Below, one piece after another: positions 46,862-53,505 of a stretch of 64,000 bases of DNA. Every line of letters begins with the position of its first letter. Position 1 is the stretch's first letter. The notes under the pieces were generated by a model. The model was given only the letters and a program-made list of their open reading frames with translations. It was not told where the DNA came from and ran no database searches. Made by a program: the position numbers and the translations under genes. The stretch comes from Thermaerobacter marianensis. Lineage in GTDB: Bacteria; Bacillota; Sulfobacillia; DVGY01. The DNA is taken from positions 1,240-65,239 of the forward strand of contig DYGY01000009.1 in NCBI GenBank assembly GCA_020724425.1, in the 5' to 3' direction.

Positions 46862-47056
46862 CTACCTACGGCCATAAGGGTTAGTTTGACTAGCCATCTG
46901 TTGTTGTGCCATCGCTACTGCAAGTTTGGTTAAACTACCACAAGCGGCTGAAGGTACAGAGCCCCACCCATCGCGACGAACCTGCTCAGCTACCCCCATT
47001 TGTGCCGCCAATTCAGCCTTTAATTCTTCGGACATAATTCCTCTACGTCTAGGCAT
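46862..47056 (-). CDS. Alpha/beta-type small acid-soluble spore protein (SASP)
   Basis: 64 aa. ELAAQMGV...GSLTKLAVAMAQQQ matches the two conserved SASP blocks (EIA.E.GV, GGEITKRLV..AEQQ). Confidence 0.8.
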   Translation of the reverse strand: MPRRRGIMSEELKAELAAQMGVAEQVRRDGWGSVPSAACGSLTKLAVAMAQQQMASQTNPYGRR

Positions 47057-47122: not shown

Positions 47123-48469
47123 CTAATGAGGCACTCTATAGTTTTTAATTATCTCATTGTATCTAGATACTTCCTTTTGCCAGGTTGTTTCATCAAAGCC
47201 TAGTTCTTTTTGAAAGATTGCTTTGAATTGTTGAATATCAGTGTCTAGAGATACTAACCCTATCCTTGTTCTTCGTAAAAGAAAGTCATCGAGATGGACT
47301 ACATGGGTATCTTTAAGGCTGTCTTTTGCAATAAGGGTGAAACCTTGCTGTTTTTTGATATCTCTTAGGTTTAGTTCTCCTGAAAGTCTTTTTAATGCTT
47401 GATAAGCCACTAACCTAAAGGTTGTTAACTTACCACCGGTAATATGAAGAACCCTGTTATCTTTTTCAAAGAATACCTCCCTTGATTCCTCTGAAGGGTT
47501 CTTTTTCCCTGTTCCTACCACTCCTCTGATACCGGCAAAGGTGGAGAGGATATCCTCATCACTTACCTGTAGAGAAGGAAAGATGTGGGCTAGGGCTGAG
47601 AGAAGATACTCCTTTTCTGCTAGCGAGATAGATGGTTCCAGATTAAGATTATGGTGGTGGTCCACATCTGTTGTGCCTAGAAGGGTTGTTCCCTGCCAGG
47701 GGAAGATGTATAGGGGTCTATGGTCTTGTGGATGCAGAAAACTAACTGCTTCTTTGATGGGAACCTTCTCATGTTTAAGGATTAAGTGGCTGCCTCTTAG
47801 TGGTCTGATTAGTGGTTCTTCTTTTCTTAGTTTGTCTACCCAGGCTCCGGTAGCATTAATGATAGCTTTTGCCTTTAGGGTGTATATCTCTTCAGTTTCT
47901 TCATCTCTAAAGGTGATATGACCATTAGAGATTTCTAAGACTTTAGCGTAGTTTAGCAGTGTTGCTCCGTTAGCTTCTGCTGTTAGAAGAATACTTAAGA
48001 CTAGTTTTGCATCATCGGTTTTGGCATCATGAAAAAGATAGCCACTAGATTCCTCTAGTTCAGGCATGATCTCCTTAAGGTTTTTTTGATATTTGTGGTC
48101 TTGATGTTTAGCAAGGAAATCATAGATAGTTAGACCTAGACCATAAAGGAAACGGTCAGAGGTATTGTGACAGGGCAGGATAAATCTTAGGGGCTCCACT
48201 AGGTCTTTAGCATCTCTTAATAGTTCTTCTCTTTCTTGGACTGATTGTTTGGTAAGGGAGATATGGCCTTGTTTAAGGTATCTAAGACCTCCATGGACCA
48301 GTTTGCCTGAACGACTAGAGGTACCCCAGGCGAAATCCCTTTGTTCAAGAAGTATGGTTTTAAGTCCAATTTGGGTAGCCAGAAGGGCTACTCCAGCACC
48401 GGTTATACCGCCACCAATAATGATGAGATCAAAGTCTTGTTTTAGCTTTTCAAGGCTATCTGCCCGCAT
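47123..48469 (-). CDS. FAD-dependent glycerol-3-phosphate dehydrogenase/oxidase (GlpA/GlpD family)
   Basis: DLIIIGGGITGAGVA dinucleotide fold and SSRSGKLVHGGLRYL, as in GlpA/GlpD. Confidence 0.75.
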   Translation of the reverse strand: MRADSLEKLKQDFDLIIIGGGITGAGVALLATQIGLKTILLEQRDFAWGTSSRSGKLVHGGLRYLKQGHISLTKQSVQEREELLRDAKDLVEPLRFILPCHNTSDRFLYGLGLTIYDFLAKHQDHKYQKNLKEIMPELEESSGYLFHDAKTDDAKLVLSILLTAEANGATLLNYAKVLEISNGHITFRDEETEEIYTLKAKAIINATGAWVDKLRKEEPLIRPLRGSHLILKHEKVPIKEAVSFLHPQDHRPLYIFPWQGTTLLGTTDVDHHHNLNLEPSISLAEKEYLLSALAHIFPSLQVSDEDILSTFAGIRGVVGTGKKNPSEESREVFFEKDNRVLHITGGKLTTFRLVAYQALKRLSGELNLRDIKKQQGFTLIAKDSLKDTHVVHLDDFLLRRTRIGLVSLDTDIQQFKAIFQKELGFDETTWQKEVSRYNEIIKNYRVPH

Positions 48470-48479
48470 AAGCTACCTC

Positions 48480-50051
48480 CTAAAAGAGCTTACCTGGATT
48501 TAAAATATTCTCAGGGTCAAAAAGCATTCCTAGAGTACCAAGGACTTGGAGACCCAAAGCCCCTTTTTCTCTTGAGAGATAGGGGAGGTGATCTTTTCCC
48601 ACACCGTGTTGATGACTGATGGTGCCACCCCATTGGATAATAGTCTCACTAGCAAGACCTTTAAGTATCTGCCATTTCCTTAGATTCTCTTCTGGGCTGT
48701 CACTGAGTTTGTAGATATAGGTGGTGTATACACTACAACCATCTGTATACATATGACTTACATGGGTAAAGGTATGCACTTTCTCCTTATCTAAACCATT
48801 GCTGATTTTTTCTTGTAGGTCACGGATTAACCCCAGAGCCTTCCCCCAAGGTATTGCTGTTTCCAAGGTATCTACCGCATAGCCCAGTTCCCAGAGGGTA
48901 TTACGGAGATAGGGAGTCTTAAATCTTGATTTATGCCATTCTGAACCAAAAACAGGCACATGAACCCCGTTATATTGCTTGATAGTGTTTCTTATGGACT
49001 TTTGTGAAGATACCTCTTCTTTGGTACCGGCTATTCCATAGAGAAGAAGAACCTTGTTCTCACCAATACCTCTAAAACCAAGGAGTGTTTCCAAGATAGA
49101 TATTTGTTGTGCTCTTCCTGCTAAGGCTAGGGTTGTGATTGTCTCTATTTCTGTGCTGAGTCTTAGCATAGTTAAGGGAGTTCTTTGTCGGGAGAGCTCA
49201 CGGATTGCTTTTAGACCATGAGAAAAGGTTGGGAAGAATACGGCTTTGAATATTTCTCTTTCCGGGAGCTTATGGATTCTAACGGTGGCTTCGGTAAGGA
49301 TGCCATATCTGCCCTCAGAGCCAAGGATAATCTCTTTAAGATCTGGTCCTGCCGCACTAGCAGGGAAGGGTGGTAGATTGAGTTCACCATGAGGGGTGAT
49401 GAACTTTCCACCAAGGAACATTCTTTCTATTCGACCATAACCCAATGATTGCTGGCCACTAGACCTTGTCGCTATCCAGCCACCTAAGGTTGAATATTCA
49501 AATGATTGGGGGAAATGCCCTAAGGTATAGCCCTTTTCATTAAGAATGGCCTCTAGATCTAATCCATTAATGCCAGCTTGGAAGGTTGCAGTATGGTTCT
49601 CCTCATTGAGATGCATTAGTTTGTTCATTTTGCTTAGATCTACCGTGATGGTAGGTTTGGCATTGTATATATTGATATGGCCAACCACACTTGTTCCTCC
49701 CCCGTAGGGGATTAGGGCGATATCATTATCATAGGCATAGTTAATCAGGCTCTTTATATCCTGATTGCTTTGAGGATAGGCGACTCCAGCGGGAAAGTAT
49801 TCAATGTTACCACTGCGTAAAGCAATCCAATCAGGCAGGCTCTGACCTCTAGCATGCCTTACTCTATCAAAAGAATCAGTTGTGACAAGCTTGTGGCCAA
49901 TGTGACTTTGTGGCACTTTTTTTGTGAGTTCTTCCAAAGAGATATCTTGAGGTTTTCTTGAAGGACCTAGTTTGGATTCTAAAAAAGACAAGGCTGATTC
50001 ATGTAAGGGATATTCCACTTCGATGTTGCCCCAACCGTTCCAGCGTTTCAT
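48480..50051 (-). CDS. FAD-linked oxidase, alkyldihydroxyacetone-phosphate synthase (ADPS/AGPS)-like
   Basis: FAD_binding_4-type N-domain. DRVRHARGQSL...IPYGGGTSVVG resembles the AGPS DRVFRAHG...IPIGGGTSV block rather than the GlcD-type G.GTG motif. Confidence 0.55.
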   Translation of the reverse strand: MKRWNGWGNIEVEYPLHESALSFLESKLGPSRKPQDISLEELTKKVPQSHIGHKLVTTDSFDRVRHARGQSLPDWIALRSGNIEYFPAGVAYPQSNQDIKSLINYAYDNDIALIPYGGGTSVVGHINIYNAKPTITVDLSKMNKLMHLNEENHTATFQAGINGLDLEAILNEKGYTLGHFPQSFEYSTLGGWIATRSSGQQSLGYGRIERMFLGGKFITPHGELNLPPFPASAAGPDLKEIILGSEGRYGILTEATVRIHKLPEREIFKAVFFPTFSHGLKAIRELSRQRTPLTMLRLSTEIETITTLALAGRAQQISILETLLGFRGIGENKVLLLYGIAGTKEEVSSQKSIRNTIKQYNGVHVPVFGSEWHKSRFKTPYLRNTLWELGYAVDTLETAIPWGKALGLIRDLQEKISNGLDKEKVHTFTHVSHMYTDGCSVYTTYIYKLSDSPEENLRKWQILKGLASETIIQWGGTISHQHGVGKDHLPYLSREKGALGLQVLGTLGMLFDPENILNPGKLF

Positions 50052-50179
50052 AATAAATAAGCCACCTCCGTTGGTGGCTTATTTCTACATAATTAGTTTC
50101 CTACCTGCTTATCTAGGTTTAGCCTTTGTGGTTTCAAAGGATCAGCTGTTATATGTGGATAGGGCGCTGTTTCCGCGCC

Positions 50180-50887
50180 CTATCCTAGTTGTCTGAGTTT
50201 TAGATCAAATCTCTTATATAGTGCTAGTATCCAGACTAATGCATAGATTAGACCTATGCCTAGATACAGCCAGGCTGTTTCTCCCTCAAGGATTAACCAG
50301 AACGCCTTTACTGGCCAGTATGTGGGTAGAATACCTAGGAGGAGTTTCCAGTCTGAGGCTATCCAGAAGTCTGCTAAAGGGCCAATCATCATGATACCAA
50401 AGGCCTTCATAATAGCTAAACCCTCCACTTTGTTGTTGGCAAAACCAACTAACAAGAGCAGTGTCACTATTGAAAATAGTGAGGCCACTAGAGCCACGGG
50501 AATCACCTTAGCCCAAAGAGAGTTATCCATTAGCCCGGTTACCGGTAGGGTAATCATGACATAGATAAAACTAAAGATTGTGGTTGTGATAATTCTGTAA
50601 AGGGTATAGCTATTTACTGAAACAGGGGTAACCTGTAGGGCAGTTAGGATTCTGTCATCTCTTTCATCAAGCATAAGAAAGCCAAAAGCTACCCCGGCTA
50701 ACATGGGAATCTCTAGAATGATAAACAGTGCGAGGGCTACAGGGTAGAAGGCCTCATACTGGGGATAGGTTGATAGCAGTCTTAAGAACAATACCAGAAT
50801 CCATGGAGCTATTAACAGATAGGTCAAGAGGCTATCCCTTCTAATGGTTCTAACATCATTCATTCCTAAGGCTGATACAAGTTTCAT
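50180..50887 (-). CDS. ABC-2 family exporter permease
   Basis: 235 aa, six hydrophobic segments. Confidence 0.65.
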   Translation of the reverse strand: MKLVSALGMNDVRTIRRDSLLTYLLIAPWILVLFLRLLSTYPQYEAFYPVALALFIILEIPMLAGVAFGFLMLDERDDRILTALQVTPVSVNSYTLYRIITTTIFSFIYVMITLPVTGLMDNSLWAKVIPVALVASLFSIVTLLLLVGFANNKVEGLAIMKAFGIMMIGPLADFWIASDWKLLLGILPTYWPVKAFWLILEGETAWLYLGIGLIYALVWILALYKRFDLKLRQLG

Positions 50888-51594
50888 TAGATTTTGCCTC
50901 CTCTCTCTGCTACCACATACCTTTGAAAACTGTTCTGGGATACTTTAATGAGGATCCCTATCCAGATTAGCATATAGAGGATTCCATATATCAGTTCCCA
51001 GGTCTCTATAGGGTTAAAGGCGTGATAGATTAAGAGCATGGCTCCCTGAGTGGGTATTAAATAGAAGAGGATGCTATCAGATACCCCAAAAAGATAGAAG
51101 AGAGGGACATTCATTAACAGCATGTAGATTTGACCTGGAATAACAAAGTCGCTGATTGAACTATATGGTGCCACACTTATTAGGCCTAATAGTAGGGCAA
51201 ACACTGACATCAAAGATACTCCAACTAGAAGCCAGAATATGCTGAAGTTCCAGCCATAGGTGAATACTGTCATAATCATACTGACTACCAAGGCCATCAG
51301 AGTCAGGGAAACCAGTTTGGCTGAGAGATACTCCCTATACGTTAACGGAGTTACTACCAAGGCATAAAGACTTCTTTCACTCTTTTCAAAAAGAATCTGT
51401 CCGGCAATAAAGAAAAAGCCGATTACACTAAGATCAACAAAGACAAGCATTGGTACCATAGAGGAAAGACTCTCTTCTGGCATTGATTTTAGGACAACAA
51501 TCCAGACTAAGGTAAGGAAGGCTGCAGCGTATAAAAGACCATAGCGCTGCTGCAAGCGAAAGTCTAGTTGCAGAGCTTTCTGAAAACGCATCAT
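50887..51594 (-). CDS. ABC-2 family exporter permease
   Basis: 235 aa, six hydrophobic segments, overlapping its neighbours. Confidence 0.65.
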   Translation of the reverse strand: MMRFQKALQLDFRLQQRYGLLYAAAFLTLVWIVVLKSMPEESLSSMVPMLVFVDLSVIGFFFIAGQILFEKSERSLYALVVTPLTYREYLSAKLVSLTLMALVVSMIMTVFTYGWNFSIFWLLVGVSLMSVFALLLGLISVAPYSSISDFVIPGQIYMLLMNVPLFYLFGVSDSILFYLIPTQGAMLLIYHAFNPIETWELIYGILYMLIWIGILIKVSQNSFQRYVVAERGGKI

Positions 51595-52445
51595 ATGAGT
51601 TCCCTCCCGGTTACTCTGATGAAGATGTCCTCTAGGGTTGACTCCAAGGTATGGATTGTCTGGATATTCTCATTCTTGATTAGATTAATGAACTTCCCAT
51701 TATCTCCTAGTTGATCTAAAGAGAATTCTTCTTCTAGAAGTTCATTTTCTTTTAGGTATGCTACCTTAACAATTCTTTCTCCCTGCTGGATCTTTAGTTT
51801 TCTAGGTGAGTCAACGAGCACTATCTTGCCATCAACGATAAAAGCCACTCTATCACAGAGTTCATCAGCTACAGTCATGTTATGGGTGGTTAAAAAGATG
51901 GTATGGCCTTTCTTTTTCTCCTCAAAGATCATGTCCTTGATATTTCTGGCATTGATAGGATCTAGTCCCGCTGTGGGTTCATCCAAGAAAAGCAACTCAG
52001 GTTTGTTGATAAGAGCTCTAATGAAGTTTAGCCTCATCTGCATTCCCTTGGAATAGTTGGCCACTCTGGTGTTAGCATCTTCCTGTAAGCCTACCTTTTC
52101 CAAGAGTTCCATCGGGTTTTCTGTTTCACTGGCATACAAAGACTTAAAGAATTGAAGATTTTCAAGTCCGGTTAGTTTCTGATAGTGGTTTGGCATTTCA
52201 AAGGAGACTCCGATGCGTTCATAGTATGATTTACCCAAAGTATTAAGGTCTTTACCAAAGATCTCTACAGAGCCTTGATATTGCTTTAGAAGACCGATAA
52301 GGATTTTCTGGGTCGTACTTTTTCCTGCTCCACTAGGTCCTAGGAAACCAAGTATTTCACCTTTCTTGACATCAAAGCTGATGTCATCCACCGCTAGCTT
52401 CTCACTTCCTTCATACTGGAATGACAGGTTTTCTACACGAATCAT
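51591..52445 (-). CDS. ABC transporter ATP-binding protein
   Basis: Start MIRVENLSF at 52445 after GGAGG. Walker A GPSGAGKST, signature YSKGMQMR, Walker B LLFLDEPT. The ORF track extends 50 codons further upstream without support. Confidence 0.85.
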   Translation of the reverse strand: MIRVENLSFQYEGSEKLAVDDISFDVKKGEILGFLGPSGAGKSTTQKILIGLLKQYQGSVEIFGKDLNTLGKSYYERIGVSFEMPNHYQKLTGLENLQFFKSLYASETENPMELLEKVGLQEDANTRVANYSKGMQMRLNFIRALINKPELLFLDEPTAGLDPINARNIKDMIFEEKKKGHTIFLTTHNMTVADELCDRVAFIVDGKIVLVDSPRKLKIQQGERIVKVAYLKENELLEEEFSLDQLGDNGKFINLIKNENIQTIHTLESTLEDIFIRVTGRELI

Positions 52446-52596
52446 AGGCACCCTCCTTATGGAATTATGTACAAGCATTGACCAGTTGGTCAACTTTAGT
52501 ATACTCCTTGCCGACCAAGTGGTCAATATCTTTTGAGTAAACTTTATGTCTGCTTTTGAATACCCTATAGGCAGAATGATTTGGAGGAGGGTCACA

Positions 52597-53505
52597 ATGG
52601 ATTTTGTTCATGAATCACTGAGACAAAATCAGTTTTGGCTTCACATTATGGAGGAGCATGCCCTGTTCATTAGACTGGGACTACCTTGTAATGAGACGAA
52701 TCTGATTAATGAAGCGAAAAAGCTTGAGGATCTTTTTGGGAAGCTATATCAGAGGTCACTTAAGCTTCCTAGAACAAGAGAAGCAGTATTAAACTTTAAT
52801 GAGGAAGTATTAAGGGCACTAGACCAGATTATCGACTTTAAGAGTATAGTATTAGCCCGACAGGTTACCTGTAATATTGGTGGTTTTAATTTTCCTTTAC
52901 TACTTGATCATGTCAGAAGAGAAGCTATTCGTTTTAGGGTTATTCTCATTAGACTTCAGAATGATATTGAGCTACCTTTAGCTGAAGAGATGCTCCAGGA
53001 AGAGCTTTTCTGGTCAAGGATTATGGGAGAGCATGCCCATTTCATTCATCATCTTTTAGATCCTTCTGAACGAAGGGTCATTGAACAGACTGTTGAATTA
53101 GCAAAAACCTTTGAAACGCTTTCACTTCAGGGAGCGGATTTAGAGTCTATGCTTGTTCCCAGTGCCTTTGAGAACTGGTTACTACCTGAAAACCTCCGGG
53201 AGATTCCACCGGGTCTGGGTAATTTGCCTAAGCCTCTATTGATACCTCGGTTAAGAAGGTTTAATGATGAGGTTAAAGAGAGTGTTATGACTATTAAGAT
53301 TTTTAAGGAGCAAGCTCTGGCACTTCTTAAAGCCTGCCAGGTACTAAGCGTAATTCCTATTCCTTTGGCCCATCATGTTCTTAGAGAAGCAGAAATGGCT
53401 TTAGAGGATTTAGCGATGTTTGATCATAGGGTTGCGGAGAAGACAGAAACCAGAACAACAGAAGAAAAGCCGGTTGTTCGTAGAACCTATAGATATAAGA
53501 GTTGA
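52597..53505 (+). CDS. DUF2935-like hypothetical protein (tandem FW..IM.EHA.FI repeats)
   Basis: Start ATG 52597 after GGAGGAGGG. Internal repeat FWLHIMEEHALFIRL / FWSRIMGEHAHFIHH. Confidence 0.5.
   Translation: MDFVHESLRQNQFWLHIMEEHALFIRLGLPCNETNLINEAKKLEDLFGKLYQRSLKLPRTREAVLNFNEEVLRALDQIIDFKSIVLARQVTCNIGGFNFPLLLDHVRREAIRFRVILIRLQNDIELPLAEEMLQEELFWSRIMGEHAHFIHHLLDPSERRVIEQTVELAKTFETLSLQGADLESMLVPSAFENWLLPENLREIPPGLGNLPKPLLIPRLRRFNDEVKESVMTIKIFKEQALALLKACQVLSVIPIPLAHHVLREAEMALEDLAMFDHRVAEKTETRTTEEKPVVRRTYRYKS

Follow-up and report, generated by a model that had tools for sequence, protein, structure and literature searches.

What does a bacterium do with a relative of the ether-lipid enzyme alkyl-dihydroxyacetone-phosphate synthase (AGPS, also ADPS) that is encoded next to a glycerol-3-phosphate (G3P) dehydrogenase? 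The question is raised by two adjacent genes in a 64,000-nucleotide stretch of Thermaerobacter marianensis DNA (contig DYGY01000009.1), hereafter called the window. The genes encode an AGPS-like flavoprotein (P0001) and a GlpD-like dehydrogenase (P0002). A preliminary description had proposed that they form an ether-lipid synthesis module in which the dehydrogenase supplies dihydroxyacetone phosphate (DHAP). The two open reading frames (ORFs), one AGPS-like and one of the GlpA/GlpD type, were confirmed by sequence, Pfam, Protein Data Bank (PDB) and fold comparisons. We give about an even chance to the reading that the two enzymes would act consecutively on a 1-O-substituted sn-glycerol-3-phosphate, first oxidising C2 and then swapping or removing the group at C1.

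P0001 contains a PCMH-type FAD_binding_4 domain (PF01565, E value 2.3e-34) and a FAD-oxidase_C cap domain (PF02913, E value 3.2e-33). Among all PDB chains its best matches were AGPS structures, namely Dictyostelium ADPS (2uuu; E value 2e-78, 267.5 bits) and guinea-pig AGPS (4bby; E value 4e-66, 226.7 bits), while the best D-lactate dehydrogenase (D-LDH) reached an E value of 4.5e-24 and 88 bits. The alignments to the solved AGPS chains are nearly full length and include the N-terminal WNGWG element. The GlcD model TIGR00387 gave 130 bits against a cut-off of 567.9 and NF008408 gave 60 bits against 897; P0001 lies far under the cut-offs of the profile models for GlcD, GlcE and YdiJ. An AlphaFold model of P0001 (pLDDT 75.7, pTM 0.81) was compared with known structures by Foldseek. 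Ranks 1-37 were all AGPS chains, with TMq values of 0.75-0.81 and one of 0.66, at 26-29% identity in the structural alignment, and D-LDH chains came next with TMq values of 0.62-0.67. P0001 was placed relative to AGPS, GlcD and Dld by these sequence and fold rankings in place of a joint tree; the phylogenetic signal of AGPS has been reported to be too small (PNAS 2026, PMC13012113). Judged from the sequence and the predicted fold, P0001 is a genuine member of the AGPS family and is neither a GlcD nor a Dld. The assignment of the 523-aa oxidase in the preliminary description is thus upheld, and the clustering with D-lactate or glycolate dehydrogenases that it had named as a refutation was not seen, the AGPS matches being far ahead.

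The active-site residues were compared in the PDB alignment. Residues R419, T568, Y578, H615 and H617 of guinea-pig AGPS correspond to R297, S432, Y442, H480 and H482 of P0001. We take Tyr578, Arg419 and His617 to be catalytic in the guinea-pig enzyme, an assignment that reportedly goes back to Nenci in 2012 and de Vet in 2000, and their counterparts Y442, R297 and H482 showed no variation across 12 homologues. The HHH loop of AGPS is incomplete in P0001. The position of H616 is occupied by Q481, and the loop reads SHQHGVG. The HQH form was found in 66 of 68 GlpD-linked homologues and the HHH form in the other two, so that glutamine and histidine do interchange at the mid-loop position among orthologues. 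The motif block cited in the preliminary description was found in part: IPYGGGTSV is present at residues 114-122, but the other motif reads DRVRHARG, which is one residue off the mammalian-style DRV.RA.G.

P0001 thus resembles eukaryotic AGPS (EC 2.5.1.26; 2uuu, 4bby) in its fold (TMq of about 0.8), the WNGWG element and the equivalents of R419, Y578, H615 and H617. It differs in its low identity, the mid-loop glutamine, the GlpD as its pair mate, and the absence of FAR (fatty-acyl reductase) and GNPAT partners and of a peroxisomal context. With 267 bits, eukaryotic AGPS is as close to P0001 as the other bacterial AGPS-like clades are. The stand-alone HHH-type proteins of myxobacteria gave 241 bits at 32% identity, and the 482-aa HHH-type proteins of class relatives gave 202 bits at 30%. 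No conserved lipid context was found around the stand-alone myxobacterial paralogues. The 482-aa proteins make up a third AGPS-like subfamily in the class relatives, seen at locus L095 (G014:C69:1140-3692), where the protein has a THHHGVG loop and its gene is preceded by a DeoR-type regulator and followed by a gene for a 366-aa Cys-containing protein.

The partner protein P0002 showed the DAO domain alone (PF01266, E value 1.6e-51), and 3da1 was its PDB sequence match (E value 1.7e-66). Its top ten fold matches were all GlpD/GlpO, with TMq values up to 0.88. P0002 shares with these enzymes (3da1, 2rgo, 2qcu) the fold, the FAD motif and the conserved Arg, His and Lys positions. R63, H228, R315 and K347, whose motifs presumably contact glycerol phosphate in the E. 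coli enzyme, are invariant in the alignment of AGPS-linked GlpDs. P0002 differs from GlpD/GlpO in belonging to a separate AGPS-linked orthologous group, in scoring under the NCBIfam equivalog cut-offs (263.7 bits with NF008899 against 360) and in its shortened C-terminal domain. Pfam gave no DAO_C (PF16901) match in P0002, because about 65 residues of this domain are deleted relative to the orthologues. P0002 is 41-49% identical to the AGPS-linked GlpDs of other phyla and only 29% identical to GlpA of its own genome. Of five module-bearing genomes, four (those of Pseudomonas, Marinobacter, Massilia and Archangium) have a second GlpD, to which P0002 is 34-40% identical. In the GlpD tree, the AGPS-linked and the other GlpDs part with one change, with weak support (68/62), and P0002 joins the AGPS-linked copies of Bacillota (94/96) on a long branch. 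By these comparisons, P0002 is a dedicated AGPS-linked GlpD paralogue.

The pairing of the two genes was then considered across bacteria. The AGPS-like family has at least 8000 matches. When each species was represented by a single genome, more than 600 loci were found, of which the best 80 were used for the neighbourhood counts. The GlpD-like gene lies directly 3' of the AGPS-like gene in 72 of the 80 loci and elsewhere in the locus in two more; three loci run into a contig end. The 80 loci span at least seven phyla (Chloroflexota, Bacillota, Pseudomonadota, Myxococcota, Acidobacteriota, Gemmatimonadota and Actinomycetota), and the same pair was found on all four of the metagenome contigs. 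A XylB-like FGGY kinase gene is present in 48 loci. At the head of 21 loci, mostly in Chloroflexota and Bacillota, stand FadR-type GntR regulators, whose FadR_C domain binds acyl-CoA, and many proteobacterial loci are headed by divergent AraC regulators. Neither a FAR nor an acyltransferase gene occurs in any of the 80 loci, and no lipid gene is consistently linked. The claim that the ADPS type is rare in bacteria holds within the phylum, where it was found in 7 of 300 sampled genomes (and in 4 of 40 class relatives), but fails for bacteria at large. One class relative (L111, G027:C89, 10640-11845) has an Fe-dependent alcohol dehydrogenase in addition to the pair, and another (L113, G022:C221, 3231-6195) has an FGGY kinase and a sodium:solute symporter.

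The window pair is a minimal copy of this widespread and already published operon type. In Pseudomonas aeruginosa, PA3026-PA3025-PA3024 form an operon under the AraC regulator GliR (PA3027), for which a route from glycerol through G3P, DHAP and acyl-DHAP to alkyl-DHAP was proposed in silico (Kotecka et al. 2021, PMC8151288). Overexpression of GliR induces PA3026-PA3024 more than 100-fold, and a phospholipase and a lipid kinase are co-induced (PMC8151288). The ether-lipid idea is thus not new, since it was put forward for PA3026-PA3024 in 2021 (PMC8151288), and the window copy is no discovery in itself. The window shares with PA3026-PA3024 the order of an AGPS-like FAD oxidoreductase followed by a GlpD paralogue, the match being one of architecture and genus. 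The Pseudomonas loci, whose AGPS-like proteins are 48-51% identical to P0001, consist of a divergent AraC gene followed by the AGPS-like, GlpD-like and FGGY kinase genes. Unlike them, the window copy has no FGGY kinase as its third gene, the place being taken by an ORF resembling a small acid-soluble spore protein (SASP). It has no adjacent AraC- or FadR-type regulator, with ABC exporter genes upstream instead, and a lipid kinase is not linked to it either. The GlpD is shorter by about 65 aa, and the host is an anaerobic member of the Bacillota. FadR_C was not found in a search of the host genome.

The host genome (G000; 2.08 Mb, 92% complete) bears directly on the role that had been ascribed to P0002. 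Contig C11 (L115, 821-9446) carries a complete anaerobic glpF-glpK-glpA-glpB-glpC operon (the last two genes being glpB-like and glpC-like) together with a GlpP antiterminator, and its glpK is the sole FGGY gene in the genome. Next to this operon are genes for a PlsY and for a reductase of the ApbA/PanE family. Since a full glycerol operon is present elsewhere and DHAP is also an intermediate of glycolysis, P0002 is not needed for the supply of DHAP, and this part of the preliminary description is not supported. The pair is maintained: of the 27 strain differences listed in both genes, 18 are synonymous and 9 non-synonymous. Both genes, including that of the shortened GlpD, are therefore under purifying selection.

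If the pair forms a pathway of two steps, the first would be oxidation by the GlpD paralogue of C2 in a G3P head group bearing an acyl or alkyl group at C1 (lysophosphatidic acid or 1-alkyl-G3P). The product would be the matching glycerone (DHAP) derivative, which is of just the class to which the substrates and products of AGPS belong. In the second step, as expected from the chemistry of the family, the AGPS-type flavoenzyme would bind this ketone and form the flavin-N5 adduct typical of AGPS. The C1 group could then be exchanged or released, with acyl replaced by alkyl, or alkyl by water or acyl. In the direction of synthesis, the GlpD step would replace GNPAT. In the direction of breakdown, ether lipids would be cleaved without oxygen, often with a kinase in front. 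This logic was adopted because no private GlpD is needed for DHAP, and yet the GlpD clade is co-inherited with the AGPS-like gene across phyla.

As for the direction, we slightly favour a route in which alkyl-glycerol phosphates are salvaged or cleaved independently of oxygen over one that synthesises alkyl-DHAP. The usual partners, namely the kinase, the acyl-CoA-type and AraC regulators, the alcohol dehydrogenase and the co-regulated phospholipase, point slightly this way, as does the abundance of the module in genera not known for ether lipids. Synthesis stays well in play, since the window copy has neither the kinase nor the regulator.

Several points weigh against the two-step reading. 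The known substrate of GlpD enzymes is free G3P, and FGGY kinases usually phosphorylate soluble sugars or polyols, not lipids. The middle histidine of the AGPS loop is a glutamine in P0001 and in nearly all linked homologues, and P0002 combines its C-terminal deletion with a long branch. Salvage from free alkylglycerol would be incomplete in the kinase-less window copy, the only FGGY gene being in the glp operon. In P. aeruginosa, deletion of the operon gave no phenotype (PMC8151288). Moreover, some operon-bearing genomes have no other glpD or glpK, which fits plain glycerol use there (Kotecka et al., PMC8151288).

The two-step reading also has a more far-reaching form. The pair might make or break the sn-1 ether bond at the level of lysophosphatidate as a self-contained, oxygen-independent unit. 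The GlpD paralogue would borrow hydrogen in bringing 1-acyl- or 1-alkyl-G3P to the DHAP form, the AGPS-like enzyme would exchange acyl and alkyl or set the alcohol free with water, and the hydrogen could finally be returned by the reduced flavin of the GlpD paralogue. We consider this form unlikely. If true, such a pair could dispense with FAR and GNPAT, and with a separate alkyl-DHAP reductase and an alkylglycerol monooxygenase that depends on O2, and it would constitute a previously unknown bacterial route of ether-lipid turnover in anoxic habitats.

The alternative that survives best is the one shared by the preliminary description and Kotecka et al. 2021. The GlpD-like enzyme would form DHAP, some acyltransferase would convert it to acyl-DHAP, and the AGPS-like enzyme would swap in a fatty alcohol to give alkyl-DHAP, the committed precursor of membrane ether lipids. 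To this scheme we assign a real but minor chance. Alkyl-DHAP synthesis is the only known reaction of the AGPS family, and P0001 retains the catalytic residues that were defined by mutation. A search for HGD-D (PF06050; 2-hydroxyglutaryl-CoA dehydratase-like), the domain of the PlsA/PlsR (Ger) enzymes of the known plasmalogen route of anaerobes, found none in the 92%-complete genome, with a positive control in two reference genomes, so that another ether route would be required if the organism makes such lipids. The genome encodes three PlsY homologues, one of them fused to an acyl-ACP-reductase/PigE-like domain, which is a possible source of fatty aldehyde or alcohol. Purifying selection on the pair in a 2.1-Mb genome, with no catabolic-style regulator or kinase beside it, also speaks for synthesis.

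It is worth noting, however, that a dedicated GlpD would be superfluous for DHAP in this scheme, given glpABC and glycolysis. The preliminary description had looked to an acyl-DHAP acyltransferase or a FAR elsewhere in the genome. The search for FAR (PF07993) returned three weak, epimerase-sized matches and no convincing FAR, and that for PlsC-type acyltransferases (PF01553) returned one protein of 215 aa and no second PlsC- or GNPAT-type enzyme. Such partners are equally missing from the 80 related loci. The view of the locus as an ether-lipid module is thus borne out by the AGPS family membership and the conserved GlpD link, but not by FAR and GNPAT-type partners. A search of the genome for CarF/PEDS1 (PF10520) gave no match, and its control likewise matched nowhere. 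The class relatives show no co-occurrence of the reductase-like gene with the AGPS-like one. The module is also common in Pseudomonas, Marinobacter and Massilia, which to our knowledge are not genera known for ether lipids.

The genetically supported case differs as well. Among bacterial AGPS proteins, genetic evidence exists for MXAN_1676 (Agps) of Myxococcus xanthus alone (Lorenzen 2014, reviewed in PMC9131029). Its operon contains a FAR-GNPAT fusion and an epimerase-family gene, and its disruption lowers ether lipids only slightly (PMC9131029). P0001 is likewise a bacterial AGPS-family protein, but its gene is linked to GlpD and not to FAR-GNPAT. In the myxobacterium Archangium, a GlpD-linked HQH copy (50% identical to P0001) is found together with a separate stand-alone HHH-type paralogue (33%). 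A literature search on Rv2251/glpD1, alkylglycerol cleavage and bacterial alkyl-DHAP synthase operons returned no functional study.

The idea that the substrate is soluble and not a lipid has a small chance. The kinase, the GlpD-like and the AGPS-like enzymes would then process a substituted glycerol or another polyol phosphate, and the chemistry of the AGPS-like enzyme would not be acyl/alkyl exchange. The XylB-like sugar kinase as the usual third gene, the sodium:solute symporter in one relative, the change from HHH to HQH and the lack of a consistently linked lipid gene are in keeping with this idea. It is at odds with the acyl-CoA-binding domain of the FadR-type regulators at 21 loci, with the preservation of the whole AGPS fold including the WNGWG element, and with the co-regulation of a phospholipase and a lipid kinase in P. 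aeruginosa (PMC8151288). Finally, it is very improbable that the pair is a redundant G3P dehydrogenase beside an ordinary D-lactate, glycolate or other 2-hydroxyacid dehydrogenase, clearing for example D-lactate formed from DHAP via methylglyoxal: both proteins do belong to large oxidoreductase superfamilies, and the homologues are named only 'FAD-binding oxidoreductase' by NCBI, but the E value of the AGPS match is over 50 orders of magnitude better than those of D-LDH and GlcD, its fold score is also higher, the GlcD and GlcE models stay far under their cut-offs, and the pairing with a distinct GlpD clade is conserved across phyla.

The features of the locus are collected in Table 1. Between the stop codon of P0001 and the start codon of P0002 there are 10 nt, with GGAGG inside the gap. 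The spacer 5' of the AGPS-like start codon is 128 nt long and contains two strong hairpins; the fold of 50040-50195 has an energy of -58.9 kcal/mol (z = -8.2). The position of the hairpin nearer to the AGPS-like gene suggests a terminator of the ABC transcript, a translation gate that sequesters the Shine-Dalgarno sequence, or both. An Rfam search of the whole window found no family, and the spacer hairpins match no known riboswitch.

Table 1. Positions in the window of the gene pair and of the features around it.
Feature	Position	Strand	Description and basis
AGPS/ADPS-family flavoprotein P0001	48480..50051	-	523 aa; Pfam, PDB match and fold match; GlpD-linked 'PA3026 type' in which SHQHGVG replaces the HHH loop
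GlpD/GlpO-type FAD dehydrogenase paralogue P0002	47123..48469	-	448 aa; orthologue of AGPS-linked GlpDs; about 65 aa deleted in the C-terminal domain
Strong hairpin 3 nt before the AGPS-like start codon	50055..50084	-	Encloses Shine-Dalgarno GGAGGTG at 50063-50069; U-rich 3' side; sequence and fold
GC-rich 11-bp hairpin	50157..50185	-	Overlaps the stop codon of the upstream ABC permease, at the boundary of ABC genes and pair; sequence and fold
ABC-2 exporter upstream of the pair	50180..52445	-	ATPase 51591-52445 (likely start ATG 52445); permeases 50887-51594 and 50180-50887
SASP-like ORF	46862-47056	-	64 aa; just 3' of the GlpD-like gene; strong AAGGAGG ribosome-binding site
Palindrome pair in front of the ABC exporter operon	52470-52530		Two TTGACCAnnTGGTC(AA) palindromes
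Gene divergent from the ABC exporter	52546-53505		DUF2935 protein

The ABC-2 exporter genes upstream showed the Pfam domains ABC_tran, FLQE3_permease and ABC2_membrane, and the ATPase is drrA-like (TIGR01188). The exporter was rejected as a part of the module, because no such neighbour occurs in the 80 related loci and two strong hairpins lie between. At the front of the exporter operon, the palindromes lie over the -35 boxes of two tandem promoter-like sites and look like an operator pair. The divergent gene beyond encodes no obvious regulator. On the other side of the pair, the 64-aa ORF resembles alpha/beta-type SASPs (Pfam SASP, 19.1 bits against a cut-off of 22), which hints that the organism forms spores; a convergent AAA+ cassette lies beyond it.

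The fused PlsY homologue, P0247 (G000:C35:142135-143793, minus strand), is a 563-aa protein that combines a PlsY acyl-phosphate:G3P acyltransferase with an acyl-ACP-reductase/PigE-N-like NAD(P) domain, the structure matches being PDB 4ppm (1e-20) and AAR 6jzu (1e-11). A second, stand-alone copy lies at G000:C37:4235-5215. A frame of fusion length (628 aa, 53% identical), judged by length and not by PlsY content, was found in one other of the 40 class relatives, and most of the remaining relatives have a stand-alone version of about 375 aa. At the membrane, P0247 might produce fatty aldehyde or fatty alcohol. As a source of fatty alcohol for the pair it was set aside as a loose candidate, since its family shows no association with the AGPS-like gene across the 40 class relatives.

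A strain with 99.1% identity was found in metagenomes from bioreactor, sludge and sediment. None of the sequencing runs listed as containing it is recorded as RNA. The host is an anaerobic and probably spore-forming member of the Bacillota from subsurface, sludge or bioreactor samples. Two bioreactor runs of one study, labelled 'metatranscriptomic WGA', gave patchy contigs over both genes; their RNA status was guessed, and they were not used as evidence of expression. No contig in these runs spans 50016-50151, whereas a DNA run spans all of it, and this was not used as evidence of a transcript end.

The two-gene core is kept under selection without a kinase or a lipid-responsive regulator, in a small anaerobic genome with a complete glycerol operon. 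This fact argues that the pair is the functional unit and that its GlpD does not serve glycerol use. Ether-lipid synthesis is plausible but is not the best-supported direction, and the pair is to be taken as a lead on ether-lipid chemistry, not as proof. Two wider matters are touched here: non-isoprenoid ether-lipid synthesis in bacteria beyond the myxobacteria and the carriers of PlsA/Ger, and the cleavage of ether bonds without oxygen in anaerobes. Both bear on the reading of ether-lipid biomarkers in sediments and sludge. A true AGPS homologue that is tied across many phyla to a GlpD paralogue of its own is an obvious candidate for such ether-lipid chemistry.

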